A DNA stretch of 64,000 bases from a virus. Its lineage: Duplodnaviria > Caudoviricetes. Location of the stretch: positions 1 through 64,000 of IMG/VR virus record IMGVR_UViG_3300020576_003495, one strand, 5' to 3'. Of this stretch, positions 3,015-63,472 are shown in pieces; position 1 is the first letter of the stretch; each line of letters begins with the position of its first letter. The position numbers and the translations under genes are program-made. The notes beneath the pieces are model-generated. The model made no database searches and was not told where the DNA came from. It saw only the letters and a list, made by a program, of their open reading frames with translations.

Positions 3015-3275
3015 ATGGATCATCTGCAACAAGTCAGTCTAAAGGATTGTACTTACTACAAGGAAACAGGCGTGTTGACGCTTGCAAGTAATTTCCTTTC
3101 GGGCGGTTTCCCTGAGTTTATCAAGGTGGTCAGTCATCGCACGGGCGGGTCTATCGTCTTTGAACAAGACGCTGAAGCGGCTATCGCCAACGAATTTTGG
3201 GACGGGGAGATGTGCGAGTACAAGCCACACTCCGATAACAACCGTGTATCTAAGCTGGTCGTCCATACTATTTAA
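3015..3275 (+). CDS. phage hypothetical protein
   Basis: 86 aa, strong GGAGG RBS. Confidence 0.75.
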   Translation: MDHLQQVSLKDCTYYKETGVLTLASNFLSGGFPEFIKVVSHRTGGSIVFEQDAEAAIANEFWDGEMCEYKPHSDNNRVSKLVVHTI

Positions 3276-3284
3276 GGAATACAC

Positions 3285-3983
3285 ATGACACGAAAATACG
3301 AAAAACCTAAGATTACGCCTGACACTTCGATGCACAGTGGGGATGTGTATTCTCACCCGGCCTACGGTCTGGTTACGCTGTCTCAAACAACAGGGGGCAG
3401 TACAACCTTGTTCGGATCAGACATCGGGCATAACGCGGCGATGCGAATTCAAGTGCAGCGTGCAGAACTGCGGCGTGACTTAGGGCGTGATTGGGTTTTC
3501 GGTAAAGACATTTTGTGTGAGTTTGAAATGTCACACGCTCAATTTGCACAGTTCATTACGTCGCAAGGCAATGGATCAGGCACACCGATTACCTTGCTGT
3601 ACGCTGCTCCCCCGAAGGCTGGTCTTGAGGTTATCCCCGCCATTGAACATATCCAATCCAAAGCGGATTTACACCGTGACGAAATTGGGCGTTCTTCTGC
3701 GGAACAAATCCAGAAGATCACTGAAGAACTGGCCGCAATCAATGTTTTGGTTGAATCAGGAACGATCCCCAAAAAGGCGCTGAAAGAGCGGTTGTTTTCT
3801 CTTAACTGCCACGTGAAAAACCTGCCGGGGAACCTTGAGTATTCGGTTAAGGCGGCTGAAGTGGCTCTTGAAAAGGCGACCAGTGACGCAAAAATAGAAG
3901 TCGAGTCCTACAGCCAAATGACAGCACATCGTCTGGGGCTGGATTCCATTTCAAAACTGGCTCAACTCGAAAACAAGGCATGA
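3285..3983 (+). CDS. conserved phage hypothetical protein
   Basis: 232 aa, HPAYG..LFGSDIGH..EFEMSHAQFAQFITS.G.G.GTPIT motifs, AAGGA RBS. Confidence 0.8.
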   Translation: MTRKYEKPKITPDTSMHSGDVYSHPAYGLVTLSQTTGGSTTLFGSDIGHNAAMRIQVQRAELRRDLGRDWVFGKDILCEFEMSHAQFAQFITSQGNGSGTPITLLYAAPPKAGLEVIPAIEHIQSKADLHRDEIGRSSAEQIQKITEELAAINVLVESGTIPKKALKERLFSLNCHVKNLPGNLEYSVKAAEVALEKATSDAKIEVESYSQMTAHRLGLDSISKLAQLENKA

Positions 3984-6516: not shown

Positions 6517-6883
6517 CGCTTTTGTTTTTCCGATGGAGTATTTCTATCGGCAGATTCTTGACGACGCTGTTTTCCATGTCGGTGCTGATGTCGTCTTCCT
6601 TGATTGGGAAGGTGAGTACCTAGAAGTAGAGGCGGCAATGGAGAGTTGGTGCTCTGCTTTCGAGCGATTAGCCCACGACATGAGGGGCGATTTGAAATTA
6701 CTTGCAATCCGCAAGATGGGTAAGTGGCTTCGTGTGGGGACACCGATCCCCGACGATCTAATAAAAAACTTCAGAGAAGAATTGGATGCGTGTATTCGAC
6801 TATACTCATCCGCCCCCGCCTATCAAATCGTCAGAAGCATGAAGACTGAGCAGATCGCTATAGAACTTGGCGTGTATGGTTAA
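6434..6883 (+). CDS. phage hypothetical protein with basic N-terminus
   Basis: MAKNKKPRKQYKPR...; overlaps the previous gene. Confidence 0.65.
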   Translation: MAKNKKPRKQYKPRIQDQNKPVSKKRLSAFVFPMEYFYRQILDDAVFHVGADVVFLDWEGEYLEVEAAMESWCSAFERLAHDMRGDLKLLAIRKMGKWLRVGTPIPDDLIKNFREELDACIRLYSSAPAYQIVRSMKTEQIAIELGVYG

Positions 6884-9644: not shown

Positions 9645-10019
9645 ATGAAATTAAGCATCGTAGGAAAAGCCAACGTGCCTTCGGGTCTGGTTGAAATCTA
9701 TTCTGATGGGGATGTAGTTGTCACCACTAGGACGAGATACGGCGTGGTGATGACAGATTTGCCTTATGCCGTAATGAAACCCCTATATGACTCTTTGAAC
9801 TTGTCCCCCGATGATCCCCCGCCGATTGACCCGCAGGTAATCAACAAGCCCACAGGCAAACTGAAACCCCCCGCACGTATTGAGAAGACGCCTTCGGGAT
9901 GGAAAACCAATATTCGTGTGGGCAAAGAAGATCGAGTCTATTTCTACCGCACGCGGGATCAGTCCAGAGCAGCAAAGCCAATACACAAGATTGGTGGGCC
10001 AGAAGGTCGTATCAAGTAA
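9645..10019 (+). CDS. phage hypothetical protein
   Basis: 124 aa, AGGA RBS. Confidence 0.65.
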   Translation: MKLSIVGKANVPSGLVEIYSDGDVVVTTRTRYGVVMTDLPYAVMKPLYDSLNLSPDDPPPIDPQVINKPTGKLKPPARIEKTPSGWKTNIRVGKEDRVYFYRTRDQSRAAKPIHKIGGPEGRIK

Positions 10020-10021
10020 CC

Positions 10022-10249
10022 ATGTGGTCGCTCAATAATCTGACGCGGGATCAGATTGTCATGATCCTGCAACTACTCTATAGCCCCCACCTTCAGCAGC
10101 AGGTGTATATCGACTTCAAAAACCCTTATCGGGAGTTTCTTCCGTTTTGGGAAAATGCCGAGTTGCAGCAGAATTTTTTTAGGGGCTATGCACGGCACAT
10201 AAAACAAATCCCTGACGAACTTTATCGTGGGAAACTTCTGTTCTGTTGA
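10022..10249 (+). CDS. phage hypothetical protein
   Basis: MWSLNNLTRDQ.. directly after the previous stop. Confidence 0.5.
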   Translation: MWSLNNLTRDQIVMILQLLYSPHLQQQVYIDFKNPYREFLPFWENAELQQNFFRGYARHIKQIPDELYRGKLLFC

Positions 10250-10270
10250 AATTACTTGCACGGAGTGCAC

Positions 10271-10851: not shown

Positions 10852-11149
10852 TACGACAACACCGTTCTTCTTTTGGGTAATAAGGCACAAGAACGAAATC
10901 TTCAAAGCAAGAGCGCCTTTCATGTGCAACATCGCTTTTGATGATGATTCGTATTTTGTATTAGAAGTGCCCCGGCTAAATATGTGTGCCTACACCAAGA
11001 AACGATCTGACTTGATTAACGAAGTGGGCGAGCAGTTATCAATGCTATGGAAGGAATACGCCATGGCTGACGAGGCTACGCTGGATGATGGTGCGGCTAT
11101 TTTGAAGCACGAACTTTTAAACACGTTTGAGAGAAAAGTAGATGTCTGA
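10844..11149 (+). CDS. HicB-like fold hypothetical protein
   Basis: FVLEVPRLNMCAY..DLINEVGEQLSMLWKEYA pattern. Confidence 0.45.
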   Translation: MGNTTTPFFFWVIRHKNEIFKARAPFMCNIAFDDDSYFVLEVPRLNMCAYTKKRSDLINEVGEQLSMLWKEYAMADEATLDDGAAILKHELLNTFERKVDV

Positions 11150-11528
11150 GTTGAACGTATTGACCACAGAACTTGAAACGGCACGCAAGATTTTCTGGTT
11201 GCTGGTGGAAGATCAGATTTTCCTGACCAGCTACAACAGCATAAAAGAAACGTGGGACGACGGTGCCTATCCTGCAATTAATTGCAACGATATTTTTGTG
11301 CCGGGGGCTGATGCGGAGAACTTAGCCGCAGAAGACTTGGACTTGTATATCGAAGCGGTGAAGAAGTGGCCGAAGACAGCGGGCTATGCGTGGTGTGCTG
11401 TTAAACGTGCGGCTAAGCCGTGGAGGAAGGTTGATTCAGCGAAGTGGGTTGATGACTACAACGCGGCTATAGATGGGATCACTGAGTTGTTTGTTCAACG
11501 AGACAAAAGGATTAAAAATGGAAACTAG
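11142..11528 (+). CDS. phage hypothetical protein
   Basis: 128 aa, INCNDIF..ADAE motif. Confidence 0.7.
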   Translation: MSELNVLTTELETARKIFWLLVEDQIFLTSYNSIKETWDDGAYPAINCNDIFVPGADAENLAAEDLDLYIEAVKKWPKTAGYAWCAVKRAAKPWRKVDSAKWVDDYNAAIDGITELFVQRDKRIKNGN

Positions 11529-12267: not shown

Positions 12268-12624
12268 ATGTCAATACATACAGAAATAACCGCATCGGAC
12301 TACATTAAGTATCGTGGGAAGTGCAAACAGCTTTGCGATGCTGCGTGTGTGGCTGATCCTTCTTTGACTTTGGTTCGTGGGCACTACTTCTGCCCCATCT
12401 GGAATACAAACGAACCGCACTGGTGGACGGTTAGGCCGAACGGTGAGATTTATGATCCCACCAAAAACCAGTTTCCATCAAAGGGCTTGGGTGAGTACGT
12501 TCCTTTTGATGGTGTTGTCAAGTGCGCTGAGTGCGGTAAGAAAATGAAAGAAGCTGAAGCACGCTTTGACAGCAACTACGCTTTTTGTAGTTCCCTGTGC
12601 AACATGAGGTTTGTGGGGCTATGA
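12268..12624 (+). CDS. transglutaminase/papain-like protein with C-terminal Zn finger
   Basis: GKC...HWW...YDPT putative Cys-His-Asp triad; CAEC..FCSSLC. Confidence 0.55.
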   Translation: MSIHTEITASDYIKYRGKCKQLCDAACVADPSLTLVRGHYFCPIWNTNEPHWWTVRPNGEIYDPTKNQFPSKGLGEYVPFDGVVKCAECGKKMKEAEARFDSNYAFCSSLCNMRFVGL

Positions 12625-12818
12625 TAAAAACAACGGGGCGATATGGAACACGCGAAGAACTGTGCTTTTTCGTCAATCGTTGGTACTACGGTTCGGAAAT
12701 GAAGCAAGCTGAGATTGCTAGGGTGTGCCGTGTGAGCGAAGGCACTGTGGCTAACATAATTAAGAAAGACGAGGGGTATGATGCGTACATGGCTTCTATT
12801 GCTGCTGATCTTCAGTAG
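12621..12818 (+). CDS. small helix-turn-helix protein
   Basis: MKQAEIARVCRVSEGTVANII. Confidence 0.7.
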   Translation: MIKTTGRYGTREELCFFVNRWYYGSEMKQAEIARVCRVSEGTVANIIKKDEGYDAYMASIAADLQ

Positions 12819-14249: not shown

Positions 14250-14290
14250 TGGGCTATTGAAATTACTTGCAACAAAACAACGGAGTGTTT

Positions 14291-16405: not shown

Positions 16406-16476
16406 TTAACATGACTATTTACAATTCAAATAACTTCGTACAATTTAACCCCGTGGAGTTCTGCGGGGGGATTGAC

Positions 16477-16884
16477 ATGGAGTGTCCTAAGTGCTGTAGC
16501 GTTTCTGCGCGGTATATCGAAGACCACACGGGCGTTTTTCTAAAATGCTTTTGTGGTTTTCTAAAACTGGTTCAATCGAAGTATGCGGATGGTAGTCAGA
16601 CTGACCATATTGACATCGAAGAAGAAGTCACTCTACCAAGACGCGGAACAAAACTTTTGTGTGCCTTGGGCGCGTTATTTGCCATTGAACCCGCAAGCAC
16701 CAAGCATGTTACTGAACTGGTTAACCAAAGCGCGGAAGTTGCACAGACCAGTTCGGATGTGGCATCACAACTTACTATTCTCAGATACAAGGGTCTTGTT
16801 GAAATAACCGACTACAAGCGCGGCATCGTCGGCGGCAGCACTTGGATCACCACGGACACAGCTAAACGATTGATGGGGCGTTAA
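16477..16884 (+). CDS. Zn-ribbon + winged-helix putative transcription regulator
   Basis: CPKC..CFCG then SSDVASQLTILRYKGLV..GGSTW. Confidence 0.65.
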   Translation: MECPKCCSVSARYIEDHTGVFLKCFCGFLKLVQSKYADGSQTDHIDIEEEVTLPRRGTKLLCALGALFAIEPASTKHVTELVNQSAEVAQTSSDVASQLTILRYKGLVEITDYKRGIVGGSTWITTDTAKRLMGR

Positions 16885-16885
16885 T

Positions 16886-17194
16886 ATGGGTAAAGGATTA
16901 TCTTTGGGGGTGTCTGAGGGTAGGGTGATTTACCTTGGGGACACTCCGTTGACTGTCGTGTATATATCCCCTCGTAAAGATGAGATGGTGGTGTCTGTGA
17001 GGGGCACTGAGTTCGTGCTTGATGCGGTGGATTACATTGAGGTCATCCCCGATGTTTATGTAGGCGTTGGGCTTCCTGACCACGAGAAGACCAGAACACA
17101 AGCCCACATACTTATCAGCGCCCCACGTTCTGTCGTCATCCTACGCGACAACAATCGAGACAAACGAGTTGACAGTACGCTACAGTACCAGTAA
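16886..17194 (+). CDS. CsrA/RsmA-like protein with an internal insertion
   Basis: LSLGVSEGRVIYLGD...AHILISAPRSVVILRD matches the CsrA N- and C-terminal patterns. Confidence 0.55.
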   Translation: MGKGLSLGVSEGRVIYLGDTPLTVVYISPRKDEMVVSVRGTEFVLDAVDYIEVIPDVYVGVGLPDHEKTRTQAHILISAPRSVVILRDNNRDKRVDSTLQYQ

Positions 17195-17540: not shown

Positions 17541-17990
17541 ATGTCTGCTGTACAAAATTTTGATTTCTCTTTTGGTGGATCACCCCGCAGGATTGTGGGT
17601 GGCCCTTACCGTGTCAAGCCTGATGGTTTTTTCGGCGTGAAGATGGCAAAAGAGATTAATCATCCTTGCAATATCGACATCCCCACAGAAGATTTTTCTG
17701 TGCCGGATAAAGAAGATTTGGATCGCGGGATCAGGCAAGCGCTTATCCCAATCGCACGCAAAAAACCGATGTATGTCGGGTGCATGGGGGGTATTGGTCG
17801 GACTGGCCTGTTCTTTGGTGCGCTGATGACTCTGCTTGGCGAAGAAAAAGCCGTTCAATACGTGCGAGACAACTACAAGAGCCACGCCATTGAAACGAAA
17901 GAACAACAAGCGCTAGTGACGGACTATAGCCCTAGCCTAAAAACCAAGGTGACGTTGGAAGTGGCGAAAGTAATTGCATTGTTCTATTGA
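17541..17990 (+). CDS. dual-specificity/protein-tyrosine phosphatase
   Basis: DFSVP, VGCMGGIGRTG (CX5R), VR..Y..HAIET.EQ. Confidence 0.88.
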   Translation: MSAVQNFDFSFGGSPRRIVGGPYRVKPDGFFGVKMAKEINHPCNIDIPTEDFSVPDKEDLDRGIRQALIPIARKKPMYVGCMGGIGRTGLFFGALMTLLGEEKAVQYVRDNYKSHAIETKEQQALVTDYSPSLKTKVTLEVAKVIALFY

Positions 17991-18015
17991 CAAACTTATG
18001 GCAGTGTAGTATCCT
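17987..18015 (+). promoter_or_regulatory. phage sigma70-like promoter (TTGACAAA class)
   Basis: TTGACA-17-TATCCT; AACGGAG RBS downstream. Confidence 0.75.
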
Positions 18016-18043
18016 CAAGCAATACTGAATCAACGGAGTGATT

Positions 18044-19860: not shown

Positions 19861-19926
19861 AAAAATTCGGGTTGCTGTCGTCGGTGTTTACTGGCGACTC
19901 TAAGGGTGTCAGTGATAGCACTGTGC

Positions 19927-19955
19927 TTGACAAACTGAATAAAACGGACTATACT
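19927..19955 (+). promoter_or_regulatory. phage sigma70-like promoter (TTGACAAA class)
   Basis: TTGACA-17-TATACT; AACGGAG RBS then ATG 19986. Confidence 0.8.
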
Positions 19956-19985
19956 TCTAACAAATTAACTGCAACGGAGTGCGAA

Positions 19986-28084: not shown

Positions 28085-28298
28085 ACTGCTTTATGGCGGT
28101 AGTGCTTCGGCTAATGCCGTTCATGCCTACCTGCACAGAAGAAAACGGTTGTGTGCCTACGGTGCAAGCTGCCCAAGGTGCGGAACACGAAACCAAGTTC
28201 AACTGGTGGAGTACCTTAATCCACCCGCACGGTGGAAGTGCCGGTCGTGCAAACAAAAGTTTGTTTATGAGCCTCTAATAAAGGTAGAATGCAAGTAA
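28074..28298 (+). CDS. small Zn-ribbon protein
   Basis: CPRC..WKCRSC; AAGGA RBS. Confidence 0.6.
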   Translation: MTLELLYGGSASANAVHAYLHRRKRLCAYGASCPRCGTRNQVQLVEYLNPPARWKCRSCKQKFVYEPLIKVECK

Positions 28299-28322
28299 TT
28301 GCAGCATCCCTTGGGGCTAGAC

Positions 28323-31317: not shown

Positions 31318-32451
31318 ATGTTTGAAACGATATTAAAAGGCGGTGTGGGTTCTGGCCGACACAAAGGCATCCCCATGTCCAAGCTGTACAAGCTAGTGCA
31401 TCGTGAGTCGGGGAAGATCATTGCTGAAGGAACTTCAAAGCACATCACTTCGATGAAAAAAGCCAAGAACAAGGAACACGGTGACGGTACGCATTTCGTG
31501 GGGATAGGTAGTCCGAAAAGCACGCTTGGTGGTTATTGGAGTAATTCACACACACCTGAAGGCGTAAAGAAAGAAGAAACCATGTCAATCCTAGACACCG
31601 TTAACGAGCGGTTCAATGCTCAAAAAGAATCCCGCGAATTGCAATTACTTTCACCGTTGGAAAGGATTGCCAAGGCGATTCAGGATGATGTGATGATTTC
31701 CAATCCGTGCCTTGTACATAAAGATTGGAAAGACTGGAACGATAAACACAAGCACTTAGCGCAAGGGCATGAGTCGGCGCTAAAGTATCACGATCGCGGT
31801 TCTTTTGAATTCAAAGGACAGAGCGCTGGCGACCTTCATAAGAACGCTGCAAACCTTCATCGCACAGCGCTAGCCGCACACCAAAAGGCGCTTATTGAGC
31901 CTTCGGAAGAAAACCCCAAGAAGGCGATGTGCGCTACGGGGGACAGCAAAGACGCAACTTATGCAGCGATTAAATCTACCCCCGCCTACCAGCCTAAAGG
32001 GTTTGTGAAGAAAGAAGACCTTGAGTTGATTTACAAGGATTGGACAGCTTGGAATGATGCCAAGCGTGGGATGACGCCGACAGGTGAACACACGGGAGCG
32101 CATTTACGTCCTGCATCCAATCCAAAACCGGGTATGGCTTTCAGGTTTGCTGCTACACCCAACAAACACTCCTATGGCGGTGAGAGTACACGTCTTGACA
32201 ATCACCAGTTTGACCACAAGACCTACAACAAGAATCCGAACCCTTCGGCACACCACGCCCCCAATGCCCCCCAAGTGGCTATTGATGCGACAAAAGAACG
32301 CGCCGAGAGTCATATTGACGAAGCCAATAAGAATCGCCACAGTTATCCCGGAGAGAAAGAGTTGGTTCATTCGAAGCCACAAGCCCCTAAGAAGCAAGGA
32401 CGGTTTGCTCACTTTATGGATAGCCTAGCTCGAATGGGCAGCAGTGGCTGA
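31318..32451 (+). CDS. putative internal head/ejected protein (multi-module)
   Basis: MFETILK-GGVGSGRHK leader, two internal K-DW.xW motifs, His/Lys-rich; lies between protease and scaffold. Confidence 0.65.
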   Translation: MFETILKGGVGSGRHKGIPMSKLYKLVHRESGKIIAEGTSKHITSMKKAKNKEHGDGTHFVGIGSPKSTLGGYWSNSHTPEGVKKEETMSILDTVNERFNAQKESRELQLLSPLERIAKAIQDDVMISNPCLVHKDWKDWNDKHKHLAQGHESALKYHDRGSFEFKGQSAGDLHKNAANLHRTALAAHQKALIEPSEENPKKAMCATGDSKDATYAAIKSTPAYQPKGFVKKEDLELIYKDWTAWNDAKRGMTPTGEHTGAHLRPASNPKPGMAFRFAATPNKHSYGGESTRLDNHQFDHKTYNKNPNPSAHHAPNAPQVAIDATKERAESHIDEANKNRHSYPGEKELVHSKPQAPKKQGRFAHFMDSLARMGSSG

Positions 32452-33688: not shown

Positions 33689-34282
33689 ATGTTTGAACGA
33701 ATGTTAACCCGCAAGATGTGGACAAGAGAAGCCCGAGAAGCTTCGGCTAAAGTACGTGCCGCACGTGCCGGACAAAGAACATCGCATTCACAGATTCAAG
33801 CTCCCACCTATACGCATCCTTCGGCACAGCTTCAACCGGAGAACTTTAATCAGAAAGTTCCTGAAGCGTATGACGAGGTTCCCGATGATGAGAAGAAAGT
33901 CAAGCCCCCCACATCCTACGGAAATCAGCGGAGAGTCCCCCCGGAATATGCTGCGAATGGTGGTGGTGTTGATCATGTGGCGGTTGCCAACACAATAATG
34001 AAGCAGTACGGGGGCAACCGATTTAAGGTGATGACTGGTGCAAGTAATTTCACTGCCAGCAAGACTCCCGAAGGACATCCCTACCTTTCCTTCAAGATTC
34101 CCCGTGCCAAGGGGATCACGCATGTCAAAACCGTCCTGAAGCCCGATGACACCTACGACGTGCACATGATTGGGGTTCATGGAAAGAGCATCAAAGAAAA
34201 GCATGTCGCTCATGGGATGCACGCGGATCAACTGGAAGCGCACTTTCAACATCACACCGGACTTTCCACGAGGCTATTCTAA
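33689..34282 (+). CDS. putative internal head/ejected protein
   Basis: MFERMLTRK-MWTREAREAS leader; C-terminal VANTI.KQ.GGNRF.VMTGA..DTYDV..DQL..F...TGL.T.L domain. Confidence 0.65.
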   Translation: MFERMLTRKMWTREAREASAKVRAARAGQRTSHSQIQAPTYTHPSAQLQPENFNQKVPEAYDEVPDDEKKVKPPTSYGNQRRVPPEYAANGGGVDHVAVANTIMKQYGGNRFKVMTGASNFTASKTPEGHPYLSFKIPRAKGITHVKTVLKPDDTYDVHMIGVHGKSIKEKHVAHGMHADQLEAHFQHHTGLSTRLF

Positions 34283-37259: not shown

Positions 37260-38039
37260 ATGCTAGTCACGGGTGATTTTATGCAAATTGTTTACACTTT
37301 TGGAAGTTGGCGAAGCATGCGAGACAGATGCACGGTTCCTAGCAGCGCAAATTACCTTAGCTACGGTGGTCGTGGAATCATTGTGTGCGAGCGATGGCTA
37401 GAATCTGCGGATAACTTCGTTGTAGATATGGGGATAAAGCCTGTGGGAACTTCCCTAGAGCGCCTTGACGTTAACGGAAATTACGAACCGGCTAACTGTC
37501 AGTGGGCGACAAAGAAACAGCAAGCCCAAAATAGGCGCACCAGCATTGCGCTCACGCATAACGGTGAAACAAAGAACGTTGCTGAGTGGGCTAGGGAAAA
37601 AGGTATGGGCGTGTCGACACTAATTGGGCGACACCACTCAGGAATGCCCCTAGAAAAAGCCTTGGGCGATAAAGTCCATACTAACGCTAAGGAGCGTGCG
37701 CGTAATCGTAAGAGCAACGTCTTAGTTACTTACGACGGTAAAACACAATGCATGATTGAATGGGCAGAAGAAATAAACATTCCTGTGAAGACGCTATGGC
37801 ACCGTAAATCTTTGGGTTGGTCAGATGAGAAAATAGTTACCACTCCGACACATCGTAACCCCGATGTCCCTAAGTTTTATCCTTTCCCCACAGAATCCGG
37901 TGTTGAGATGTTGAATCTTTCAGAAATTGCGCGTAGAACGAATCAAACATTAACAGCGGTTAGAGTTAAAATCTTAGACGGTGAATCCCCTGAAGTGGTG
38001 TTTTCTAATAAAAAACGTAAGCCTAAGCGTTGCAAGTAA
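37260..38039 (+). CDS. free-standing HNH homing endonuclease
   Basis: SWRSMRDRC..YGGRGIIVCERW..DMG..SLERLDVNGNYEPANCQWAT; repeated GET...EWA DNA-binding modules. Confidence 0.88.
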   Translation: MLVTGDFMQIVYTFGSWRSMRDRCTVPSSANYLSYGGRGIIVCERWLESADNFVVDMGIKPVGTSLERLDVNGNYEPANCQWATKKQQAQNRRTSIALTHNGETKNVAEWAREKGMGVSTLIGRHHSGMPLEKALGDKVHTNAKERARNRKSNVLVTYDGKTQCMIEWAEEINIPVKTLWHRKSLGWSDEKIVTTPTHRNPDVPKFYPFPTESGVEMLNLSEIARRTNQTLTAVRVKILDGESPEVVFSNKKRKPKRCK

Positions 38040-38131
38040 TTTCACCAACCCCCTAACGCAAAATTGCTTTAGCTTACCTGTTGCGCTACTATACCTAGCC
38101 GAACACTTGTTCGTACTTATAGGAGCTACAC

Positions 38132-41945: not shown

Positions 41946-41957
41946 GGTGCTTTGCAG

Positions 41958-42203
41958 TTACTTGCAGCGGCGTTTCAGTTCGGCTTTGACAGCTTTAGCT
42001 GTCTCACCACGCCATGTCCCCGCGTTATTCAGGAAGTAGAGGACGATGCTCTTGGCACTATCGCAACCGTACTTGTCTTCGATGTTGATAATTTCAATCA
42101 TCGCTTGCAGATAGGGTTTAGCCGCAGGATGAACTTTATCCCCCCAATCCTTGCGGATGAGTTGAGCCAGTTGGTAGATCGTCAGTTCTTTAAGGTTTTC
42201 CAT
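41958..42203 (-). CDS. conserved phage hypothetical protein
   Basis: I.KDW..V..AAKPYL.AM..YFL.NA..WRGE.AK.VKAEL. Confidence 0.75.
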   Translation of the reverse strand: MENLKELTIYQLAQLIRKDWGDKVHPAAKPYLQAMIEIINIEDKYGCDSAKSIVLYFLNNAGTWRGETAKAVKAELKRRCK

Positions 42204-42868: not shown

Positions 42869-42899
42869 GTTTAAATTCTCCTGTAGTGTTTGCCAAAAC

Positions 42900-43645: not shown

Positions 43646-43673
43646 AGTATACAGCAATGACCACGTTTGTCAA
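43646..43673 (-). promoter_or_regulatory. phage sigma70-like promoter (TTGACAAA class)
   Basis: Minus-strand TTGACA-16-TATACT; AACGGAG RBS downstream. Confidence 0.7.
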
Positions 43674-43748
43674 GCTGTTTGTTGTTGCAATTAATTTCAC
43701 GCAAGGGTAAGCTAGCGTTTTTCCCATAACACAACACAGGTGAAGCGC

Positions 43749-44446: not shown

Positions 44447-44503
44447 GTTAGGTTAGGTCTGCTTGTGTCAGAATTGCCGTAGATACCGCTCAGGGATTTT
44501 TTC

Positions 44504-53683: not shown

Positions 53684-54081
53684 TTATAATTCGCTTAGGG
53701 GGTTTGGAGTTGAATCCAAGCCTGAACTGGACAGACAGGTTTCAGTCGTATCAGGTGGCTCAGACGGTTAGCCGCACTGTGGGGGGTAAAGCCGTAGTTT
53801 TTGCCACGCCTTTGCAAGCGGGTCGAAAGGTCACATTGGAGTCAACGCAAGAGCAAGGCTGGTTAACGCTTGACATGGTGACTGACCTAGCAGTTATGGC
53901 GTCAACGGTAGGGTCTTCCTTCTTGCTTGAAGTCGGTGATGATGCAGGGACGTTAGAAACGCTAAATGTAATATTCAGGCACAACGAACCCCCTGCGTTA
54001 GAATTGTCCCCCATGATAAATCGCCCCAAGCATGAAACCGAAGATATGTTTTATGGGAAAATAAAGCTGTTAACCATCTAA
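53680..54081 (+). CDS. distal tail protein-like
   Basis: Immediately after the TMP; LNWTD..Q...RTVGG..GRKVTL..GWL..IKLLTI. Confidence 0.65.
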   Translation: MIIIRLGGLELNPSLNWTDRFQSYQVAQTVSRTVGGKAVVFATPLQAGRKVTLESTQEQGWLTLDMVTDLAVMASTVGSSFLLEVGDDAGTLETLNVIFRHNEPPALELSPMINRPKHETEDMFYGKIKLLTI

Positions 54082-54111
54082 ATTTGCAATTACTTTCATT
54101 GGAGTTTCACC

Positions 54112-55097: not shown

Positions 55098-56099
55098 ATG
55101 GCATTAGAAGTCCGTGCCGTAGTAGCCAACATACCAGCTACGGTAACAAAACTCCACGGATACCCGCTTAAGCTGGTTGGGGATTCTTTCCATGTGCAGG
55201 TGTATCCACCGGGGAACGTTGTTGAGGTAACTGATGGGACGCTGAATCTAATAAAAGCCAACATACGGATTTACATCCCCGGTTCCTTGGTGCGTTTTAA
55301 CAACTCTGTTACAGCCCCATCTGGTTGGCTGGAAATAGGGCATTGGGCAATACTGTATAGTTTTACTGAGACTGTTCTCCACAGCACCAGACCGCTATCC
55401 ATAACATACGACCAAGAATCAGGAAACTTCATAGCTTCTCATCCGTGCCATGCCGCAATAAAGATGGAACCTTTCTTTGCCGAGTACGATTTGTATTCCT
55501 ACACACCCGCTTTCGGTAAAGAAGTTGTGACCTTCGATCCTTGGCTTGGTAAAGAGTACAGAATGTCATCCACGTTTTATGGCACAGCGTACTGCATTCA
55601 TAGGTTTGACCCCGCTCTGCAACTGCCGCCTGCTGTGGCTACGTTTGACATACCCGCGCCGACCATTATTCCGTCTAGTTCAACCAACCTGTATAACACC
55701 TATAGCATAACAACGCCCACCATATTGACTGACCGTGGGGAGTGGCTGCGACCAGCTAAGTGGGACAGCCCTGATTACGATAAAGCCAATGCTTATGGGC
55801 CGGGTGTTGAGGGGCCGAGTAAAGAAGACTCGTGGGTAATGAAAAACAGCGTCATTGAAACAGGACATAACACGGCTGACGGGGACAATATTCACCACAC
55901 AAAACCGAAGCCTCTTGTTATCGGCAGCACGGTAGTTCCAGCGGATCAACTTGTAGTGCAGTATCAAATAAACAAAAAGCCGCCCGGTATGAGCGAGCAG
56001 GACTACCAGAACAGCTTATCTTACGCAGCAAATCGTATTGCTTACCATAATGCCAGCCAGATACTTGATACAACCACACCCGGTTCTGGTGTTGCCTGA
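55098..56099 (+). CDS. tail-region protein
   Basis: 333-aa ORF in the tail operon. Confidence 0.6.
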   Translation: MALEVRAVVANIPATVTKLHGYPLKLVGDSFHVQVYPPGNVVEVTDGTLNLIKANIRIYIPGSLVRFNNSVTAPSGWLEIGHWAILYSFTETVLHSTRPLSITYDQESGNFIASHPCHAAIKMEPFFAEYDLYSYTPAFGKEVVTFDPWLGKEYRMSSTFYGTAYCIHRFDPALQLPPAVATFDIPAPTIIPSSSTNLYNTYSITTPTILTDRGEWLRPAKWDSPDYDKANAYGPGVEGPSKEDSWVMKNSVIETGHNTADGDNIHHTKPKPLVIGSTVVPADQLVVQYQINKKPPGMSEQDYQNSLSYAANRIAYHNASQILDTTTPGSGVA

Positions 56100-59000
56100 T
56101 GTCTGAACCATTAAGCATAGGTATCGTAAAGGATAGGGATGAAGCTAAGGCGTACTTCAAACCTGAGACAAGTTTTTATACGTTTTACACTGTTGAGGAT
56201 GTTTATTTATCCCTAACCACGGATACGGATAACGATCCTATTTTTGGTAGTGTGTCCCTTTACAACCCCGCAAAATCAAGTAAGGCCAAACCCCTAAACT
56301 CCACAAAGCATATTGCGCCAGAAAAGCAGTGGGGTAACGCTCCGACAACGAATGTAACGGCTAACGCCACAGTGCCTACAATGGTGTCCAACCAGCTTGG
56401 TCAGCGGTCGTGGGCGTACAGTCCGACAGCCTTCTGCGTAAGCTATTCGCCTTCTAATATTTTTAATTGGGGAGGTAAAGCACACAGCATCTTGACGACG
56501 AGAACGCCCAACGAGTTTCCTGTTTCATGGGGAACGCGGCCAGCGATGTACACACAAACAGCATTACCAGCAACAACAGCAAAAGCAAGCTACAACATAG
56601 AAACCGTAGTCCCGAAGTTACCTACGCCTAGATGGTGGAGGCGCTGCGGTGTGCAACGTGTCGTTAGCGAAAATTTTGGCTCACGTTTATTTTATGTGCT
56701 GACAGACTCTCTTAGCCGTTTCTATGTTTACCCCGTAGGCATCCCCTTAAGTGACATTGTTGATGGCGTAACTTCTGACCGTGAGTACTATGCACCGGAT
56801 GCTTACGTGCAGTCTTGGGATTTTCCTTTTTCTGCACACGGGCTAGAGGTTCCATCTGCCGACACAGCTTACGCGCTAAACTCCAAACTGTACAAATCAA
56901 GCACGTTCAAAGCCAACGCACGCCCTGTTTTTGTGTGGGGTAATTCACCCGTTGATGGAGATTCGGCTAAAAGTAATCCAACAACGTATGATGATTGGGC
57001 GGGGTACGAAAGTGGATTTTCCCTGTCTAAGCCATTAAATTCAGCGCATTACGTGTGGTCGTTCAACTACAACAGCACACGCGCTACAACCATAGCCTAT
57101 AAGTTGAAAACGGATCAACGAGTCATGCAGGGTATTCTTGGTGATGATTATCCGATGTGGAGACACAAAGACTGTCCCTACGGGTACGCCATACCTACAG
57201 TGCTGAAGGATAAAGTAAATGCTAGTGTAGCGTCAGCAATGGCTGTGGAAGGCGTTAACTTTTCAAAAGACAACCGTACCCTTATCCCCTGCAAAGATTC
57301 TGTTACCGCTTTGCTTGAAGTGGGTATAGACATTGTTTTGACGGGGGACACGATAGGAGATTTCGTAGCAACGTTTTCTGTACTTAAAGCCGACCTGTCA
57401 ACAACAAGCGGGAATTATTATGTGGCGTCGGGGTATTCGCGCCCAAAGTGGTCGGACAACTGGCAGAAAATAGTTAACGGTAATGGTCTGGCATGGTCGA
57501 CCTTAAAGTTGTCTGGTGATACTACTGATCTAGCAGGGTACCGACTTACGGACACAGTTTTTACGAACAACACAGAAACAAACCTAGATTTCTCAGCGCG
57601 TGCTAGCGTGTCGACAACAAAGAAAGATTTTTATGAGTACATCCGGTTATTCTTCTCTGAGGGCAGGAGTGACCTTGATGAGTTTTATACCGAACTTGTT
57701 AAGGTTCTGCCAACCCTTGAAGTAAAAAGCAGTACCGTGTCAGGAGATTTCTGGTCGTGTAAGCCTGCGGACGTAAGTTCTAATAAAACGGGGTTTACTA
57801 CAGCTACGTGGGGGCCGATGCTCAAAGTCCCTATAGGCACAATGATAACGGATTACGAAATTTATGCTGGGGACAGGTTAGTTGATCCCGGCGAAGTTAC
57901 GTTTGTCTCCATGCACTCATTGGCATGGCACCTATTAAATGATCCCGCGCTACTGAAATTTATCAGTGCGCAGATAGCTGTTAATTTGAGTCGTAGCGAT
58001 TACGTTGAGGATTCGCACGATGAGGATGAGCTAGCTTATTATTTTGGGGCGTACTACTACCCCGGCGTAACCATAGACGGCGAGCTACTGTACATACCCA
58101 CTGCCACTAACCCAGATACATCTGCCACGTTAGAACACTATCCAGAGGCGCTGTATGCTTTCCAAGGCTACTTATTAGAAGCGCTCTACTTTGTAAATTC
58201 ATCTAAATCAGCATTGTTTACTGAAGCGTATGACGGCCCGTTATCCCATTTCTACTGGCACAACTATGACATAATCTTTAGACTGATGCAGTTGGCTCTG
58301 GTTAATAAGCTGCTGATTTATTCTGAGCTAGAGGATGTTATACGCACCAAGTTTATGCAGGTGTATTTTCAGTTCATGTTCACCGGAAGCACTTCTCCGC
58401 TAGAGATAAAGCTAGAATTCCCGCACCCGCCTGACCCCCCACCACCAGCCGAGACTGACTACCGAACCTTGTACTTCGACAATCTATACGAAGATTGGAG
58501 TATTAGCACCATAGATGGGTACATGGTATCCAACATAGATACGATGCGTGTCAGGTTGCCGTTGAATGCGGCGGCGTCTAACACGCTAGACATCAACGTT
58601 CTTCCCGAGGATCGAACAAAACGGTTCATGGCGACGTTGGTTACTTTCCCTTCAGCGGACGCCGAATTGGTCTATGCACAGACGCAAGCCATGGAGTCGT
58701 TTGGGAGGAAAGTGTACGACTTTAAAGCTTTTTTATGTGGCTACGAGACGTACACAGAGTATGACGATACCACAGGGCTACCCACAGGCAATACGCCTGT
58801 TAGAGACATGTACGTGTATAAGTTGGTGGACACAGAGTACGTCGTTAGCCGTACCAGCTTGGATATACTTGGTAACTTCCCTGAATTGAAACAGGAGGAT
58901 TTACCTTCTTACGGCAAGCCGTTGAATCTCCCGCCGAATATAAATGCCGCGCCTTTGGACATGGAGTGTGCTGAGTTTTTAAAGAGTGATGCGCTCAACT

Positions 59001-59905
59001 ACACCAGACTTGCCTTTAGAAATATCCAAAGTAGCGGTGAAGGGACGAAGCCTTGCGAAACCTATTGGTCTGTTACCACGGGTGTTGATTTCCACATAAA
59101 AGTGACGAAGGATACGGTTACCAATGTGGTGGCTGCGCATGACTTTTCAAATTCAGACACTATGATTTATGCGTGTTCTGCCAATGAGAACTTTCATTCG
59201 TTTTCTTTGGGATCAGCACAGCTTCGGGCTACTGAAGTTGTTGAATTAAACGGTGGTGTTTTAGAGTCAGATATATTGACGCCTTCCGCGTCAGGAACAA
59301 CCCTCGACATATCAGAGTACGCGCTGCTTTACAATTGGGTTCATGCTAACTTTTTTGGGTCTGATTACTACATCCCTAAAACATGGCTGCACTCATCTCC
59401 CTATGCTACGGATGGGAGTGCTGCAACAGAAGCCGCTTTAACCTACGGTGATATTCCAACGAGAGAGTACCTTAATCGGGGCTACTCTATGGGGCCAGAA
59501 ACGCCGAAGGGTGTGTATTCATTCGTAACGTCAGATGCCTACGGCTCAGCCGCTGGCTATTCGCTGCCGCCTAAAGGCACGTTGCAAGTAATTTCAGCGG
59601 CAATACCCACAACAGGCAAACGTAAAAATGCCATATCATCAAAGTATTCATCGGCGCAAACACTGGACTTTGTGTTTTCTAGGAGGCGCAAAGGGGACGC
59701 CACGTTCTACTATAAAACCACGCATAACGACCTATTTAATGGCGCTTTTGCACTTGCTTTATCAGAACCTAGAAAGTACCTGTATTATTGCGATACAACG
59801 TCTTCTGGTGTCGGCGGAGGGTTTGCTACGGCAGGGGGGTTTTACCCATTCAAGCTGCCCAATGTGGGCACAGAATCGTGCCCTAACTTAAAGAAAGAAT
59901 GGTAA
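56099..59905 (+). CDS. large tail-region protein
   Basis: 1268-aa ORF, TGATG coupled. Confidence 0.65.
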   Translation: MSEPLSIGIVKDRDEAKAYFKPETSFYTFYTVEDVYLSLTTDTDNDPIFGSVSLYNPAKSSKAKPLNSTKHIAPEKQWGNAPTTNVTANATVPTMVSNQLGQRSWAYSPTAFCVSYSPSNIFNWGGKAHSILTTRTPNEFPVSWGTRPAMYTQTALPATTAKASYNIETVVPKLPTPRWWRRCGVQRVVSENFGSRLFYVLTDSLSRFYVYPVGIPLSDIVDGVTSDREYYAPDAYVQSWDFPFSAHGLEVPSADTAYALNSKLYKSSTFKANARPVFVWGNSPVDGDSAKSNPTTYDDWAGYESGFSLSKPLNSAHYVWSFNYNSTRATTIAYKLKTDQRVMQGILGDDYPMWRHKDCPYGYAIPTVLKDKVNASVASAMAVEGVNFSKDNRTLIPCKDSVTALLEVGIDIVLTGDTIGDFVATFSVLKADLSTTSGNYYVASGYSRPKWSDNWQKIVNGNGLAWSTLKLSGDTTDLAGYRLTDTVFTNNTETNLDFSARASVSTTKKDFYEYIRLFFSEGRSDLDEFYTELVKVLPTLEVKSSTVSGDFWSCKPADVSSNKTGFTTATWGPMLKVPIGTMITDYEIYAGDRLVDPGEVTFVSMHSLAWHLLNDPALLKFISAQIAVNLSRSDYVEDSHDEDELAYYFGAYYYPGVTIDGELLYIPTATNPDTSATLEHYPEALYAFQGYLLEALYFVNSSKSALFTEAYDGPLSHFYWHNYDIIFRLMQLALVNKLLIYSELEDVIRTKFMQVYFQFMFTGSTSPLEIKLEFPHPPDPPPPAETDYRTLYFDNLYEDWSISTIDGYMVSNIDTMRVRLPLNAAASNTLDINVLPEDRTKRFMATLVTFPSADAELVYAQTQAMESFGRKVYDFKAFLCGYETYTEYDDTTGLPTGNTPVRDMYVYKLVDTEYVVSRTSLDILGNFPELKQEDLPSYGKPLNLPPNINAAPLDMECAEFLKSDALNYTRLAFRNIQSSGEGTKPCETYWSVTTGVDFHIKVTKDTVTNVVAAHDFSNSDTMIYACSANENFHSFSLGSAQLRATEVVELNGGVLESDILTPSASGTTLDISEYALLYNWVHANFFGSDYYIPKTWLHSSPYATDGSAATEAALTYGDIPTREYLNRGYSMGPETPKGVYSFVTSDAYGSAAGYSLPPKGTLQVISAAIPTTGKRKNAISSKYSSAQTLDFVFSRRRKGDATFYYKTTHNDLFNGAFALALSEPRKYLYYCDTTSSGVGGGFATAGGFYPFKLPNVGTESCPNLKKEW

Positions 59906-61647
59906 TGGCTATAGCACCAACATTACTCGCTGGAAGTCAAGTCGCCTTAGAGTTCACAACGATGCCTTTTGTGGAACCGTTGTTTTTACGTGGATTTACG
60001 CAAACACCGAAACTTAAAGCGGCGTATCTCCCCACAGAAAATTCCATACGCTTTTGGATTTCCGATACAGCGGGGGACATGCTAACCCAAGTGTCGTCAG
60101 ATTCAGTCTTTGCTGTTCCTTCAACGCCCTACTCATCTAATTTAAATACCTACAGCGTTATAGCTTACAGCAGAGCAGGTGCCGTTTGTCTGATGCGCAT
60201 AAACCCAAACGCTTCTGGCTATGCTGCTTTTGTCCAAACTGCTACTGCACCTTTGGCGCGTATTGAACAGTCGTTAACCGAAACACTAAGCATAAATTTC
60301 GCAGCAACAAGTCCTCTGGCAACAGTGTACAGCAGCACGGTGAACAGGGATACGGGAGTCTCTTTGTTTGACAATGCCTACTGGTCTTCGTTTAATAGGA
60401 GCGTATCGGTAGCCGCGCCAATAACAGGGTTGGTTCCTCTCGTAACAAGCGGTTTCTCCATAGGAAACTCGTGGATGAAGCAGACTGTTGATGTTGGAAC
60501 TGGCGACATTTATGTTGCGGTTGCCAGCAATTCAGCAACAGGGATAGACGCTGATTTAGGCACCCCTGTCATGATAGTTAAAAACGACGGCACGGTTGGT
60601 TCTCCTGTGTATGTTGTTCCGCCAAACGCTCTAATAAACCTACCTGATACGAAGTATCAATTCACAGCAACAAGCTACACTAGCGCGACGGACGCCAGCA
60701 GTCCTTATCCCTATATTGTGGCTGTAGCCCAAGACGGCAGTGCTTTCGTATTTACTGTAATCGTGGCTTTGGTCAACAAGACCTACGCTGGAACTGTAGC
60801 CCTTACTTTCGACTTTTCCCCTTCTTACCTAAGACGCTACATGTCAGCGTCTGGTCTTGGGGGCGCTTTGACTACACAACTACAACCACCCCCAGTTAAC
60901 GCTTTACCCATGTCAAAAATTACAGGGGTGCGCGTTATCGGTTTGGGGGGTCTGGTTTCTTTAAGTGACATAACGCTAAAGCAACGAACAAATTCACCCA
61001 CGGGTGTTCCTTTGGTACAAGGGCTGTACCCTGCCGTAGACCCTGACAGATACACCTACCTATCTGCATCAGGTGACGGGGTTAATTTCGGTGCAGAGGT
61101 TCTAGCTACAGCGTCTGGTGTCTACACACTGTACACGACTAATGGTGGTACTGTAGCTGTGACAACGAACAGGCTGCTATACGATCCTTATTACAATGGC
61201 GTTGAGGTTGTAAAGTACAACTACTCCGCGTACTCCCTTCTTGACCAAGCAACGGCGTCCAAGCTGCTTCTTGGGGATATTGAGTACAAGTGTTTTTTCC
61301 TTGTTAACACACACCCCACACAAACCATTACCACACTGAAACTATGGTCAGACTATAACTGCGACTACCTGACAGGCTCAACAGCCAACGATAACTACAT
61401 CCAGATGGGCATCATTACTAATGACAGGGACGGGACAGCTAACCCAACCATAGCGAATCAAACCACGGCTCCGGTTGGAATAACTTTCGCGTTTCACAAC
61501 TCTGAGTTAGAAGCGGCTGTGGTGTCCACATTGCTTCCGGGCGAATGCGTTCCTATATGGGTGAAGCGTGTGATAAAGTCTGGGCAGGTGCCAAGTGGCT
61601 TGCCTGAAAACATCACTAGCTCGCTACGACTTAAATTGACGTACTAA
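59905..61647 (+). CDS. tail tip/fibre-like protein with C-terminal domain paralogous to the 54112 product
   Basis: Ser/Thr-rich; C-terminal GDIEYKCFFLVNTH..PIWVKRVI. Confidence 0.65.
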   Translation: MAIAPTLLAGSQVALEFTTMPFVEPLFLRGFTQTPKLKAAYLPTENSIRFWISDTAGDMLTQVSSDSVFAVPSTPYSSNLNTYSVIAYSRAGAVCLMRINPNASGYAAFVQTATAPLARIEQSLTETLSINFAATSPLATVYSSTVNRDTGVSLFDNAYWSSFNRSVSVAAPITGLVPLVTSGFSIGNSWMKQTVDVGTGDIYVAVASNSATGIDADLGTPVMIVKNDGTVGSPVYVVPPNALINLPDTKYQFTATSYTSATDASSPYPYIVAVAQDGSAFVFTVIVALVNKTYAGTVALTFDFSPSYLRRYMSASGLGGALTTQLQPPPVNALPMSKITGVRVIGLGGLVSLSDITLKQRTNSPTGVPLVQGLYPAVDPDRYTYLSASGDGVNFGAEVLATASGVYTLYTTNGGTVAVTTNRLLYDPYYNGVEVVKYNYSAYSLLDQATASKLLLGDIEYKCFFLVNTHPTQTITTLKLWSDYNCDYLTGSTANDNYIQMGIITNDRDGTANPTIANQTTAPVGITFAFHNSELEAAVVSTLLPGECVPIWVKRVIKSGQVPSGLPENITSSLRLKLTY

Positions 61648-61648
61648 T

Positions 61649-63472
61649 ATGACCACCAGCACGGTTGATTCCTTAATCCTCATTCCTGTAGGAGAACCCG
61701 CAACGTTATGGGACGTTAGCGAGGATTGGAATTACCTAGAAACCCCCAGTCAGATATACGATAAGCGCCTGTCCGTGCGAAAGTTCGTGCGCTACCCTGA
61801 ACGAGTAAGTGCAAGTGCCCCCGTAAGTTACAATGCGCTAGTCCGCTTTTCTGTTAGAAAAACAGTTCATAGGGCGCTCTATTCTCCTGTTAACAAAAGC
61901 GGCGACGTTTTGTATTCGTCCTACAACCGTGTTGCTTGTAGGAAGACGCTGAAGAACGCTTTGTATAGTCCTGTGGTGACCAGTTATGCGGCACTATGGG
62001 GGCCAGTGGTGTCTCGACTGACTGTTTCGTTCGGTGTTCGCTATTCACGGTGGGACGCTGTAGTATCCAGCAACCCCCTGTCTTACCTCACGGGGACTCG
62101 CGTTAGTGCGAGGTACAGCGCACAGTACATGATACTAGCCCACTGCACGGTGAGCCATGCCGTGTCTTATTACGACTACACAAGGTTGTATAAGTCGGTA
62201 TCGGTGCATTACTCAGTGAAAGATACAGACAGGGTATTTAAGCGTGCAAACGTGCAGTACTTGTCTGTCTTAGTCACGGGTGTTGCTATTATTCCTGTAG
62301 AACCTATCATCATTATTGACTCCGAGTTAGTCTATGTAAAAGACATGACGGTATCTGCGGATGAAGGAAACTTCACCTATTCTTGTGAAGCTACGCTGGC
62401 TAACTACGCTGATTTCCCAAAGTTTTTAGCCAACAAAGAATTCCATGTGAACATTCAGGGCGAGATTTATTACTTTGTGGTCGACAGTCGATCCATGGAC
62501 AGGAAAGATATAACCGCCCCCCACGCCACTGTTAGAGGCTTATCCAGAACATCCCTGCTTACGGGGGCAAAGTCTAAACAAATCATCGGTATAACGATAG
62601 ACACACCGAAGACAGCGAACGAAATTGCTAATCTTCTGGTTTATGATAGCACGATAAATCGCTCTGGCTACATCCCACCACCGGGCGATATGTCTTGGGA
62701 GATTCTTGATTGGGGATTACCCGCCTATCGTTTCGGTGTGGAGAATCAATACCCGCTAGACTCAGTGAAATTACTTGCAGAAGCAGTTGGCGGTGTCGTT
62801 GAATCCACGCCAGAAGGTAACATCAGAGTTAGGTACAAGCACCCTGTTGCTGTTCCTACGTATTCAGATGCTACGACAGACCACTTTTTATTAGATTCTG
62901 ACGATATTCTGTCCATGCAGGAGCGGCATTCACCCAACAAAAAGACGGATAGCATCTATGTCAAGACGTTCCAAGACATCGGTGTGGCTGACGTTATTGA
63001 GTTCTTCGATGTGGAAACTGTTGGGGGCGATTTAGGGTATTTTGACGATGGTAGAACAGCCTACTCTGGTGGTTTTGTTCGAGTTTTCCCAGCTATTTGG
63101 CGGGACAACGTTGAGCTATATACCACGAATAAAAACGTAGAACTTGAGTACCTTGGTATTGAAAATTGGCGTCCTAATGAGTGGCAAGCACCAGATTTCG
63201 GGTGGGAACTTATAGAGATAACTCGATCACAAGGTTCAGCACGGTACCCTGTGTGTGCCATCCAGAGTTACGGGTATCTCACCGAACCTGCGGGTAGCAT
63301 CATCATGCAAGACTACTCAAAGACGTTTTATACATCCGATTTAAACATTAGATTCAGTATGCTTAAGTTAAAATACACCACACGTTGTCATCTTTGGAAA
63401 CTGAAGGCACCGGGCGGAACGCATCTACAGCTTTGCGTCCGTGATACGGTTTTCAACTCTTACTTGAGGTAG
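61649..63472 (+). CDS. tail hub/baseplate-like protein
   Basis: W.I.DW.LP..F....P...V..LAEAVGGVVES.P.G...VRY motif. Confidence 0.65.
   Translation: MTTSTVDSLILIPVGEPATLWDVSEDWNYLETPSQIYDKRLSVRKFVRYPERVSASAPVSYNALVRFSVRKTVHRALYSPVNKSGDVLYSSYNRVACRKTLKNALYSPVVTSYAALWGPVVSRLTVSFGVRYSRWDAVVSSNPLSYLTGTRVSARYSAQYMILAHCTVSHAVSYYDYTRLYKSVSVHYSVKDTDRVFKRANVQYLSVLVTGVAIIPVEPIIIIDSELVYVKDMTVSADEGNFTYSCEATLANYADFPKFLANKEFHVNIQGEIYYFVVDSRSMDRKDITAPHATVRGLSRTSLLTGAKSKQIIGITIDTPKTANEIANLLVYDSTINRSGYIPPPGDMSWEILDWGLPAYRFGVENQYPLDSVKLLAEAVGGVVESTPEGNIRVRYKHPVAVPTYSDATTDHFLLDSDDILSMQERHSPNKKTDSIYVKTFQDIGVADVIEFFDVETVGGDLGYFDDGRTAYSGGFVRVFPAIWRDNVELYTTNKNVELEYLGIENWRPNEWQAPDFGWELIEITRSQGSARYPVCAIQSYGYLTEPAGSIIMQDYSKTFYTSDLNIRFSMLKLKYTTRCHLWKLKAPGGTHLQLCVRDTVFNSYLR

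Follow-up and report, generated by a model that had tools for sequence, protein, structure and literature searches.

The published repeat closest to the one described here is that of the Cluster O mycobacteriophages, whose genomes each carry more than 30 invariant copies of a 17-bp dyad, TGTTCGGNNNCCGAACA; the copies are both intergenic and intragenic, can face either way, and are mostly remote from promoters (PMC4351075). In the original description, a role in transcription was deemed unlikely and the repeat was left without an explanation (PMC4351075). Here, we describe an array of 14-bp dyads in an uncultured phage of the Caudoviricetes; the stretch analyzed (the window) comprises positions 1 to 64,000 of a 178,170-bp IMG/VR record, IMGVR_UViG_3300020576_003495 (G000). 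Most likely, the dyads are where a conserved phage protein with a predicted ParB/Noc/KorB-like DNA-binding domain docks, and selection on the array acts at the DNA level. The two arrays differ in sequence, phage lineage, and hosts, and no binder or spacing statistics were reported for Cluster O, whereas for the present array we report even spacing, a candidate binder, and covariation. As sequence and lineage differ, the likeness is one of the kind of array (more than 30 inter- and intragenic dyads, mostly off promoters; 33 to 40 in G000 and 35 each in the relatives DLP5 and VH2_2019) and not of shared origin.

Other dispersed sites have known binders. The Noc-binding sites (NBS) of Bacillus subtilis and the parS sites of ParB are 14- to 16-bp palindromes that a dimer contacts with its ParB-type helix-turn-helix domain, and specificity within the ParB/Noc family has changed through few residues (PMC7383237, PMC8429893). 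The phage dyads share the length and symmetry of these sites, are dispersed over the replicon rather than clustered, as NBS are, and have a candidate binder with a helix-turn-helix of this type in its structural model, in which one residue tracks one base of the site. The phage array is, however, far denser (one site per 2 to 5 kb) and evenly spaced, and its candidate binder lacks the ParB_N CTPase. KorB of the IncP-1 plasmid RK2 is a ParB-family repressor that acts on palindromic operators (OB; core TTTAGCGGCTAAA) and reaches promoters up to 1.5 kb away (PMC11790492). The operator is similar in length to the phage dyad, and the KorB domain matches the model of the candidate. In contrast, KorB is a CTPase sliding clamp working with KorA, whereas here the DNA-binding domain stands alone and 30 to 50 sites per genome are regularly spaced and mostly off promoters. 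RK2 carries about 12 scattered OB sites, of which some closely precede −35 boxes and others are remote from any promoter.

Cluster A stoperators are tens of asymmetric 13- to 14-bp sites, often located at stop or start codons and bound by a monomeric two-domain repressor (PMC9283540). The phage array is similar in number, site length, genome-wide spread, and frequent placement at stop and start codons. Stoperators are oriented with transcription, whereas the sites described here are dyads in either orientation, often deep within genes.

Enrichment and spacing of the dyad

The exact word TGCAAGTAATTTCA or its complement occurs seven times in the window, at every coordinate listed in a first-pass annotation of the letters, while no match was found across 100 dinucleotide-preserving shuffles. 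Allowing up to two mismatches, the window holds 13 distinct sites (17 strand matches), compared to 0.63 expected. The whole record contains 16 exact and 12 one-mismatch copies, 33 sites of the degenerate dyad TGMAAKTAMTTKCA, and 40 sites within two mismatches of TGCAATTAATTGCA, for which a first-order Markov model predicts 0.2. Against composition, the alternative set beforehand, the counts stand at 7 versus 0 expected in the window and 40 versus 0.2 in the record. The close variants listed by the annotation are also present, and all but one lie within two mismatches of the exact word; the site at 17965 (CGAAAGTAATTGCA) has three mismatches to it and departs from the degenerate dyad at the first base only. 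The site at 11273 is the perfect palindrome (TGCAATTAATTGCA) that it was said to be. With a flanking T and A, the 14-bp dyad grows to 16 bp. As described, sites occur in both orientations, inside genes, and beside promoters; they were also found at stop codons and adjoining Shine-Dalgarno sequences. Within the literature covered, a full-text search for the exact motif strings returned nothing relevant, the sole match being a chance 12-letter one in an unrelated paper, and the papers on the relatives DLP3 and RcZahn make no mention of the repeat.

Intragenic and intergenic sites together follow one another at intervals of approximately 2 to 5 kb. Over the whole record, the coefficient of variation (CV) of the gaps was 0.61 to 0.62, compared to 0.97 to 0.98 for random placement (P = 0.0004 to 0.003), and the smallest gap was 1,026 bp (P of about 0.001). 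Gaps in the window are mostly 2.4 to 4.0 kb, with two of about 10.3 kb, one (17965 to 28290) over the intein-bearing polA gene and the other (43686 to 54085) over the gene for a 3,059-aa tape measure protein. The quasi-regularity and the two long gaps noted in the annotation thus hold, and the regularity extends to the whole record. Gaps were more even still in Vibrio phage VH2_2019 (CV, 0.38) and Stenotrophomonas phage DLP5 (CV, 0.47), against about 0.98 for random placement, and the ten sites of the related record G007 are separated by 3.8 to 6.8 kb.

The array in relatives

The same dyad family, with the core TGCAATTAATTGCA, was found throughout distant relatives, and the dominant variant, which differs from genome to genome, is one or two bases off the perfect palindrome. 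Two relatives identified through the portal protein (40 to 47% identity) carry the dyad: G002, a 92-kb record classed as a provirus, has 43 to 52 sites, mostly the perfect palindrome, and G003 has 14 to 19 sites in 33 kb. Among isolates related through the capsid protein, the dyad is present in DLP5 (35 sites, TGCAATCAATTGCA dominant), VH2_2019 (VH2; 35 sites, mainly TGCAATTAACTGCA or the perfect palindrome), and Rhodobacter phage RcZahn (21 sites). In addition, a Burkholderia ubonensis isolate harbors a 98.8-kb contig of the same type, in which nine sites were found over 21 kb at a spacing of about 2.4 kb. Judged from the genomes compared, the array is a hallmark of a large group of phages. 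DLP5 and DLP3 are temperate and are maintained as phagemids or pseudolysogens (PMC5834331, PMC7326821), as is VHS1 (PMC3148565).

The only nonstructural genes common to all array-bearing genomes are replication and recombination genes and a module containing a PPDK-like gene. This shared gene set, the even spacing, and the retention of sites inside genes would all suit a landmark for DNA transactions, i.e., a bidirectional Chi-like self-marker or recombination hotspot (acting with the module of phage helicase, Cas4-like nuclease, and RecA) or regular priming or packaging-initiation sites, and a palindrome would serve either direction. Chi-site spacing in E. coli and Okazaki-fragment length are on a scale similar to 2 to 5 kb. 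However, known Chi sites are short, asymmetric, and used in one orientation, unlike a 14-bp dyad without orientation bias, and known primase sites are trinucleotides. Furthermore, the shared enzymes have essentially no alignment columns that separate the two motif classes, and the ParB_N protein encoded next to the large terminase (TerL), which lacks a conserved recognition helix, does not follow the motif class in its sequence. We consider a DNA-transaction landmark improbable.

Several related records (L227/L239 [IMGVR_UViG_3300026121_000008], L229, L232, L238, and L247) keep the ParB-like DNA-binding protein, while their array is degenerate or was not detected; mixed half-sites (TGCAC with TTGCA or TTGCC) are found in the degenerate relatives. 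The array may have decayed in these lineages.

Symmetry and selection at the DNA level

Positions of sites are kept between genomes whose proteins share only 30 to 50% identity, namely, upstream of both the PPDK-like and the portal gene, at the boundary between a phosphatase gene and the gene for a conserved 325-aa protein, and downstream of the capsid gene. Intragenic copies use both stop-free reading frames, giving peptides of the xQLIA or AINC type in unrelated proteins. Within the PPDK-like gene, a site occurs at identical codons in DLP5, the Burkholderia contig, G002, and L094, and the peptide that it encodes there is AIDCK, AINCK, or ALKCK, following the local variant of the motif. Conservation of intragenic copies in relatives had been set beforehand as a check, and the PPDK-like site indeed stays in place while the residues change. 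Selection on the array acts at the DNA level.

The dyad itself points to a two-fold symmetric ligand. In the lineage comprising L094 and G006 to G009, the motif is TGCACTCAAGTGCA, i.e., A5 has become C and T10 has become G, so that both half-sites switched together. Bases 3 and 12 of the 33 G000 sites are C/T (22 sites), C/G (6 sites), or A/G (5 sites) and never A/T. These combinations suggest that one half-site may be weakened and that the pairing-compatible A/T is avoided. The suggestion of the first-pass annotation that the sites are targets of a dimeric phage protein is well supported as a case of putative binding, since the dyad symmetry, the symmetric change of half-sites, and base combinations that disfavor a hairpin all argue for it.

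The same bases bear on an RNA-level role. A small hairpin in the 5' untranslated region, acting in translation or RNA processing (e.g., as a CsrA-like target or an AU-rich enhancer 5' of the Shine-Dalgarno sequence), would fit the observation that, in every genome examined, about a quarter of the sites end 0 to 4 nt before GGAG or AGGAG, and in most relatives the gene after the PPDK-like one is CsrA-like. However, the dominant G000 form is unpaired at bases 3 and 12, so that a clean stem is impossible. Sites also occur in both orientations in genomes with all genes on a single strand (9 copies of the dominant VH2 variant run one way and 11 the other), and many lie upstream of promoters or deep in long genes. 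An RNA element is thus very hard to reconcile with the array, and we regard it as highly improbable.

Promoters and other settings

Apart from sites inside genes, three settings recur. In the first, the site lies 8 to 9 nt upstream of the −35 box of a σ70-type promoter, as at 17965, 121907, and 139185 in G000; G002 has four such sites and VH2 seven or more, and the site is often closely preceded by a terminator. In the second, the site lies 2 to 9 nt downstream of a −10 box. In the third, a Shine-Dalgarno sequence begins 0 to 4 nt after the end of the site, and the upstream gene often has its stop codon in the TGA or TAA of the site.

The promoters of G000 form a very uniform σ70-type family, TTGACAAA(C/T)-N17-TAnnnT, with 38 members (e.g., at 2963, 11985, 14221, 17347, 17987, and 19927), and VH2 uses the same extended −35 box (TTGACAAAAC) despite its different host. 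A site accompanies 4 of the 38 conserved TTGACAAA-N17-TAnnnT promoters (5 counting one degenerate site), leaving 34 without one. As so few promoters have a site, the array is not a promoter element as such. In DLP5, most sites fall within annotated genes, the tape measure and tail genes among them.

These settings bring up a stoperator-like or P1 C1-like global repressor, in which an immunity repressor, not necessarily the ParB-like protein, would occupy all sites in the plasmid-prophage state, shutting promoters and blocking read-through in both directions, with the even spacing capping the length of leaky transcription. The lifestyle of the isolated relatives accords with this, as they are temperate phagemids or pseudolysogens (DLP5 and DLP3, PMC5834331, PMC7326821; VHS1, PMC3148565), and so do the provirus status of G002 and the contig in the B. 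ubonensis isolate. Many sites overlap stop codons or sit just 5' of Shine-Dalgarno sequences, conserved promoters have a site either 8 to 9 nt ahead of the −35 box or shortly after the −10 box, and the density of sites equals that of stoperators (PMC9283540). However, the sites have dyad symmetry and can face either way with respect to transcription (9 versus 11 among the one-strand genes of VH2), most of the strong G000 promoters have none, and DLP5 sites are mostly intragenic. Moreover, no conventional repressor is common to all array-bearing genomes, HTH_3 proteins being found in G002 and RcZahn only and winged helix-turn-helix and MerR-like proteins in subsets. A global repressor is therefore an unlikely explanation of the whole array. 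Of the roles put forward in the first-pass annotation, a genome-organizing or parS/NBS-like one fits best; stoperator-like repression is conceivable, but the symmetry of the sites, their occurrence in either orientation, and their frequent intragenic position count against it.

A candidate binding protein

The most likely binder would be the protein encoded at G000:113262-114029, outside the window, as suggested by its predicted fold, its presence in relatives, the sites upstream of its gene, and one match between a residue and a base. Its family was found in 7 of the 7 relatives that cover the region, and two diverged paralogs are encoded at 115162-116610 in G000. The conserved core of the family is FKLGGVL...RKAxY...LGWTKL. 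Sequence searches returned no Pfam or PDB match and revealed no ParB_N CTPase domain; since this domain is lacking, the candidate alone is not a CTP-gated clamp. In an AlphaFold2 model (pLDDT, 82), a predicted ParB/Noc/KorB-type helix-turn-helix domain is followed by a C-terminal helical domain, and residues 29 to 153 match the DNA-binding domains of this family. Alignment of the model with VIA-align gave Z scores of 10.1 for Spo0J-parS (4umk), 9.3 for Noc-NBS (6y93), 9.2 for 6t1f, and 6.7 for the KorB domain (1r71), with unrelated rows from Z 4.5.

A dyad lies upstream of the gene for the candidate in six relatives (VH2, DLP5, G002 [two sites], RcZahn, L225, and L228), and in DLP5 this site is the sole perfect palindrome of the genome. 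IMG/VR yielded 117 relatives, and most of 80 IMG/VR loci encoding the family have a TGCAA-N4-TTGCA array. The residue following L-x-W-T/S-K-x covaries with base 5 of the half-site: K accompanies A in 31 of 31 arrays (31 of the 46 distinct K-type proteins are in loci with a TGCAA-type array), R accompanies C in 3 of 3, and where G is enriched the residue is Q or A. A DNA-transaction landmark leaves unexplained both this covariation and the site upstream of the ParB-like gene. The type of recognition helix (xYRKA versus xGRKAR) does not track the central TTAA/TCAA bases.

Several observations weigh against this assignment. The covariation spans few independent lineages and is not corrected for kinship, and the covarying residue is S both in G000, where base 5 is mostly A, and in RcZahn, where A and G are mixed. 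The site nearest to the candidate gene in G000 is 756 bp upstream of it, and about 15 loci encode the protein with a degenerate array or none. The family is without a match in Pfam or PDB by sequence, and the fold match concerns a helical domain, for which middling Z scores are common. Finally, the fixed distance of 8 to 9 nt between site and −35 box in G000, G002, and VH2 points to a transcriptional role.

The dyads would be putative docking sites on double-stranded DNA, maintained over the genome at near-even intervals, for a protein that is encoded by the phage and has two-fold symmetry, and we judge this explanation as a whole to be somewhat probable. Their role may be, with less assurance, to mark or organize the genome in the manner of Noc-NBS or KorB-OB, by silencing, segregation, or compaction; such genome-wide marking is favored because the spacing is even, sites lie inside genes, and the predicted fold is ParB/Noc-like. 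Such a role would accord with the persistence of relatives as phagemids, i.e., plasmid-like prophages (PMC5834331, PMC7326821), and the sites next to promoters would serve a side function, not the one for which the array is kept. More tentatively, as something possible rather than probable, a widespread group of 80- to 180-kb siphophages of Proteobacteria may carry an even, whole-chromosome lattice for a CTPase-less ParB/Noc-like protein, which would mark, silence, or segregate the genome in the manner of a nucleoid protein, with selection for spacing and with coevolution of protein and site through single-residue switches.

Other proteins were considered as binders. The three named in the first-pass annotation are not borne out. 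The Zn-ribbon winged helix-turn-helix protein at 16477 is absent from array-bearing VH2, G002, G003, and RcZahn, the helix-turn-helix protein at 12597-12818 (given as 12621) has a Sigma70_r4 match below the family threshold only, and the protein at 7481, credited with a ParB-like module, has no detectable ParB_N and only an ART-PolyVal domain. The gene for the Zn-ribbon and winged-helix protein (16411-16884) directly follows the PPDK-like gene and is kept in DLP5, the B. ubonensis contig, L093, L094, L096, and G008. ParB_N (PF02195) is absent from the entire G000 record. The ParB_N protein adjoining TerL occurs in G002, G003, VH2, DLP5, RcZahn, and G008 and is missing from G000; its helix-turn-helix-like segment is acidic and unconserved and shows no difference between the two motif classes. 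A homolog of the TerL family of the relatives was likewise not found in the G000 record. Together with an estimated completeness of 91%, the lack of TerL and of a ParB_N protein suggests that the terminase region lies beyond the end of the contig. A MerR-like protein encoded after the helicase is confined to a subset of array-bearing genomes, and HTH_3 proteins were rejected for their restriction to two genomes. The 325-aa conserved protein (18044-19021) has no Pfam, PDB, or Atlas assignment, and its invariant polar motifs (TRESRH, GGKxW, and HNNGPxFNKG) look enzymatic.

Sites in the window and neighboring genes

The sites of the window are listed in Table 1. In related activated-sludge or wastewater strains, other sequence stands in place of 41894-42252, which includes the site at 41953, and of 42582-42904, and the leftward gene block at 41958-43618 appears to be a variable region.

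Table 1. Dyad sites in the window and the promoter adjoining one of them (ORF, open reading frame)
Feature	Position	Strand	Sequence	Setting	Counterparts in relatives
Variant	3083..3096		TGCAAGTAATTTCC	within ORF 3015-3275	
Exact site	6693..6706	−	TGCAAGTAATTTCA	intragenic, ORF 6398/6638-6883	
Exact site	10247..10260	−	TGCAAGTAATTTCA	TGA in site is the stop of ORF 9899-10249; GGAG 1 nt beyond; next ATG 10271	
Perfect palindrome	11273..11286		TGCAATTAATTGCA	intragenic, ORF 11142-11528, reads AINC	
Exact site	14258..14271	−	TGCAAGTAATTTCA	19 nt upstream of PPDK-like gene (start 14291), 8 nt downstream of TATACT −10 box	position kept in G002 (82185) and G003 (13548)
Variant	17965..17978		CGAAAGTAATTGCA	8 nt upstream of TTGACA −35 box	position kept in G002 (79006), G003 (16918), and VH2 (21770), always before the 325-aa conserved gene
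σ70-type promoter	17987..18021	+	TTGACAAAC-N17-TATCCT	immediately downstream of site 17965	
Variant	28290..28303		TGCAAGTAATTGCA	upstream of portal gene; TAA in site ends ORF 28074-28298	position kept in G002 (73213) and G003 (23143)
Variant	31640..31653		TGCAATTACTTTCA	intragenic, ORF 31318-32451	
Exact site	34039..34052	+	TGCAAGTAATTTCA	intragenic, ORF 33689-34282	
Exact site	38031..38044	+	TGCAAGTAATTTCA	TAA in site is the stop of HNH gene 37260-38039, which in G000 intervenes after the capsid gene	G002 (66749) and G003 (30438), immediately after capsid gene
Variant	41953..41966		TGCAGTTACTTGCA	junction of rightward genes with leftward block 41958-43618	
Variant	43686..43699		TGCAATTAATTTCA	divergent intergenic; 12 nt upstream of leftward TTGACAAAC promoter (−35 at 43668-43673); 49 nt before rightward gene 43749	
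Variant	54085..54098		TGCAATTACTTTCA	between gene end 54081 and ATG 54112; GGAG 2 nt beyond site	
Exact site	59583..59596	+	TGCAAGTAATTTCA	intragenic, 1,268-aa tail gene 56099-59905	
Exact site	62766..62779	−	TGCAAGTAATTTCA	intragenic, gene 61649-63472	

The module upstream of polA (14291-20828) is syntenic in all relatives examined and encodes a PPDK/PEP-synthase-like dikinase, a CsrA-like small protein, two dual-specificity-phosphatase-like proteins, and the 325-aa and a 280-aa protein. It may serve nucleotide chemistry or DNA modification. Outside the window, at G000:90442-92715 (L088:6443-8716), an SF2 helicase of 757 aa is encoded, compared to about 450 aa in relatives. The insert looks like an intein, and the L225 and L228 homologs have Hom_end_hint domains.

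Significance

Dispersed dyad arrays have been known in phages from Cluster O, with neither a binder nor a function assigned, and the array described here comes with a specific candidate and a testable prediction linking a residue to a base. The array is present in cultured, workable phages (DLP5, DLP3, VH2_2019, and RcZahn), and, given these phages, the candidate protein, and the residue-to-base prediction, the question can be tested directly. The motif is also a practical signature for recognizing this phage group in metagenomes. The puzzle that it poses is that a virus retains a protein-docking site every few kilobases even at a cost in amino acids. Should the candidate work as Noc or KorB do but with no CTP switch, the known working modes of the ParB family would be extended, and its action could explain how these phages persist as plasmid-like prophages.

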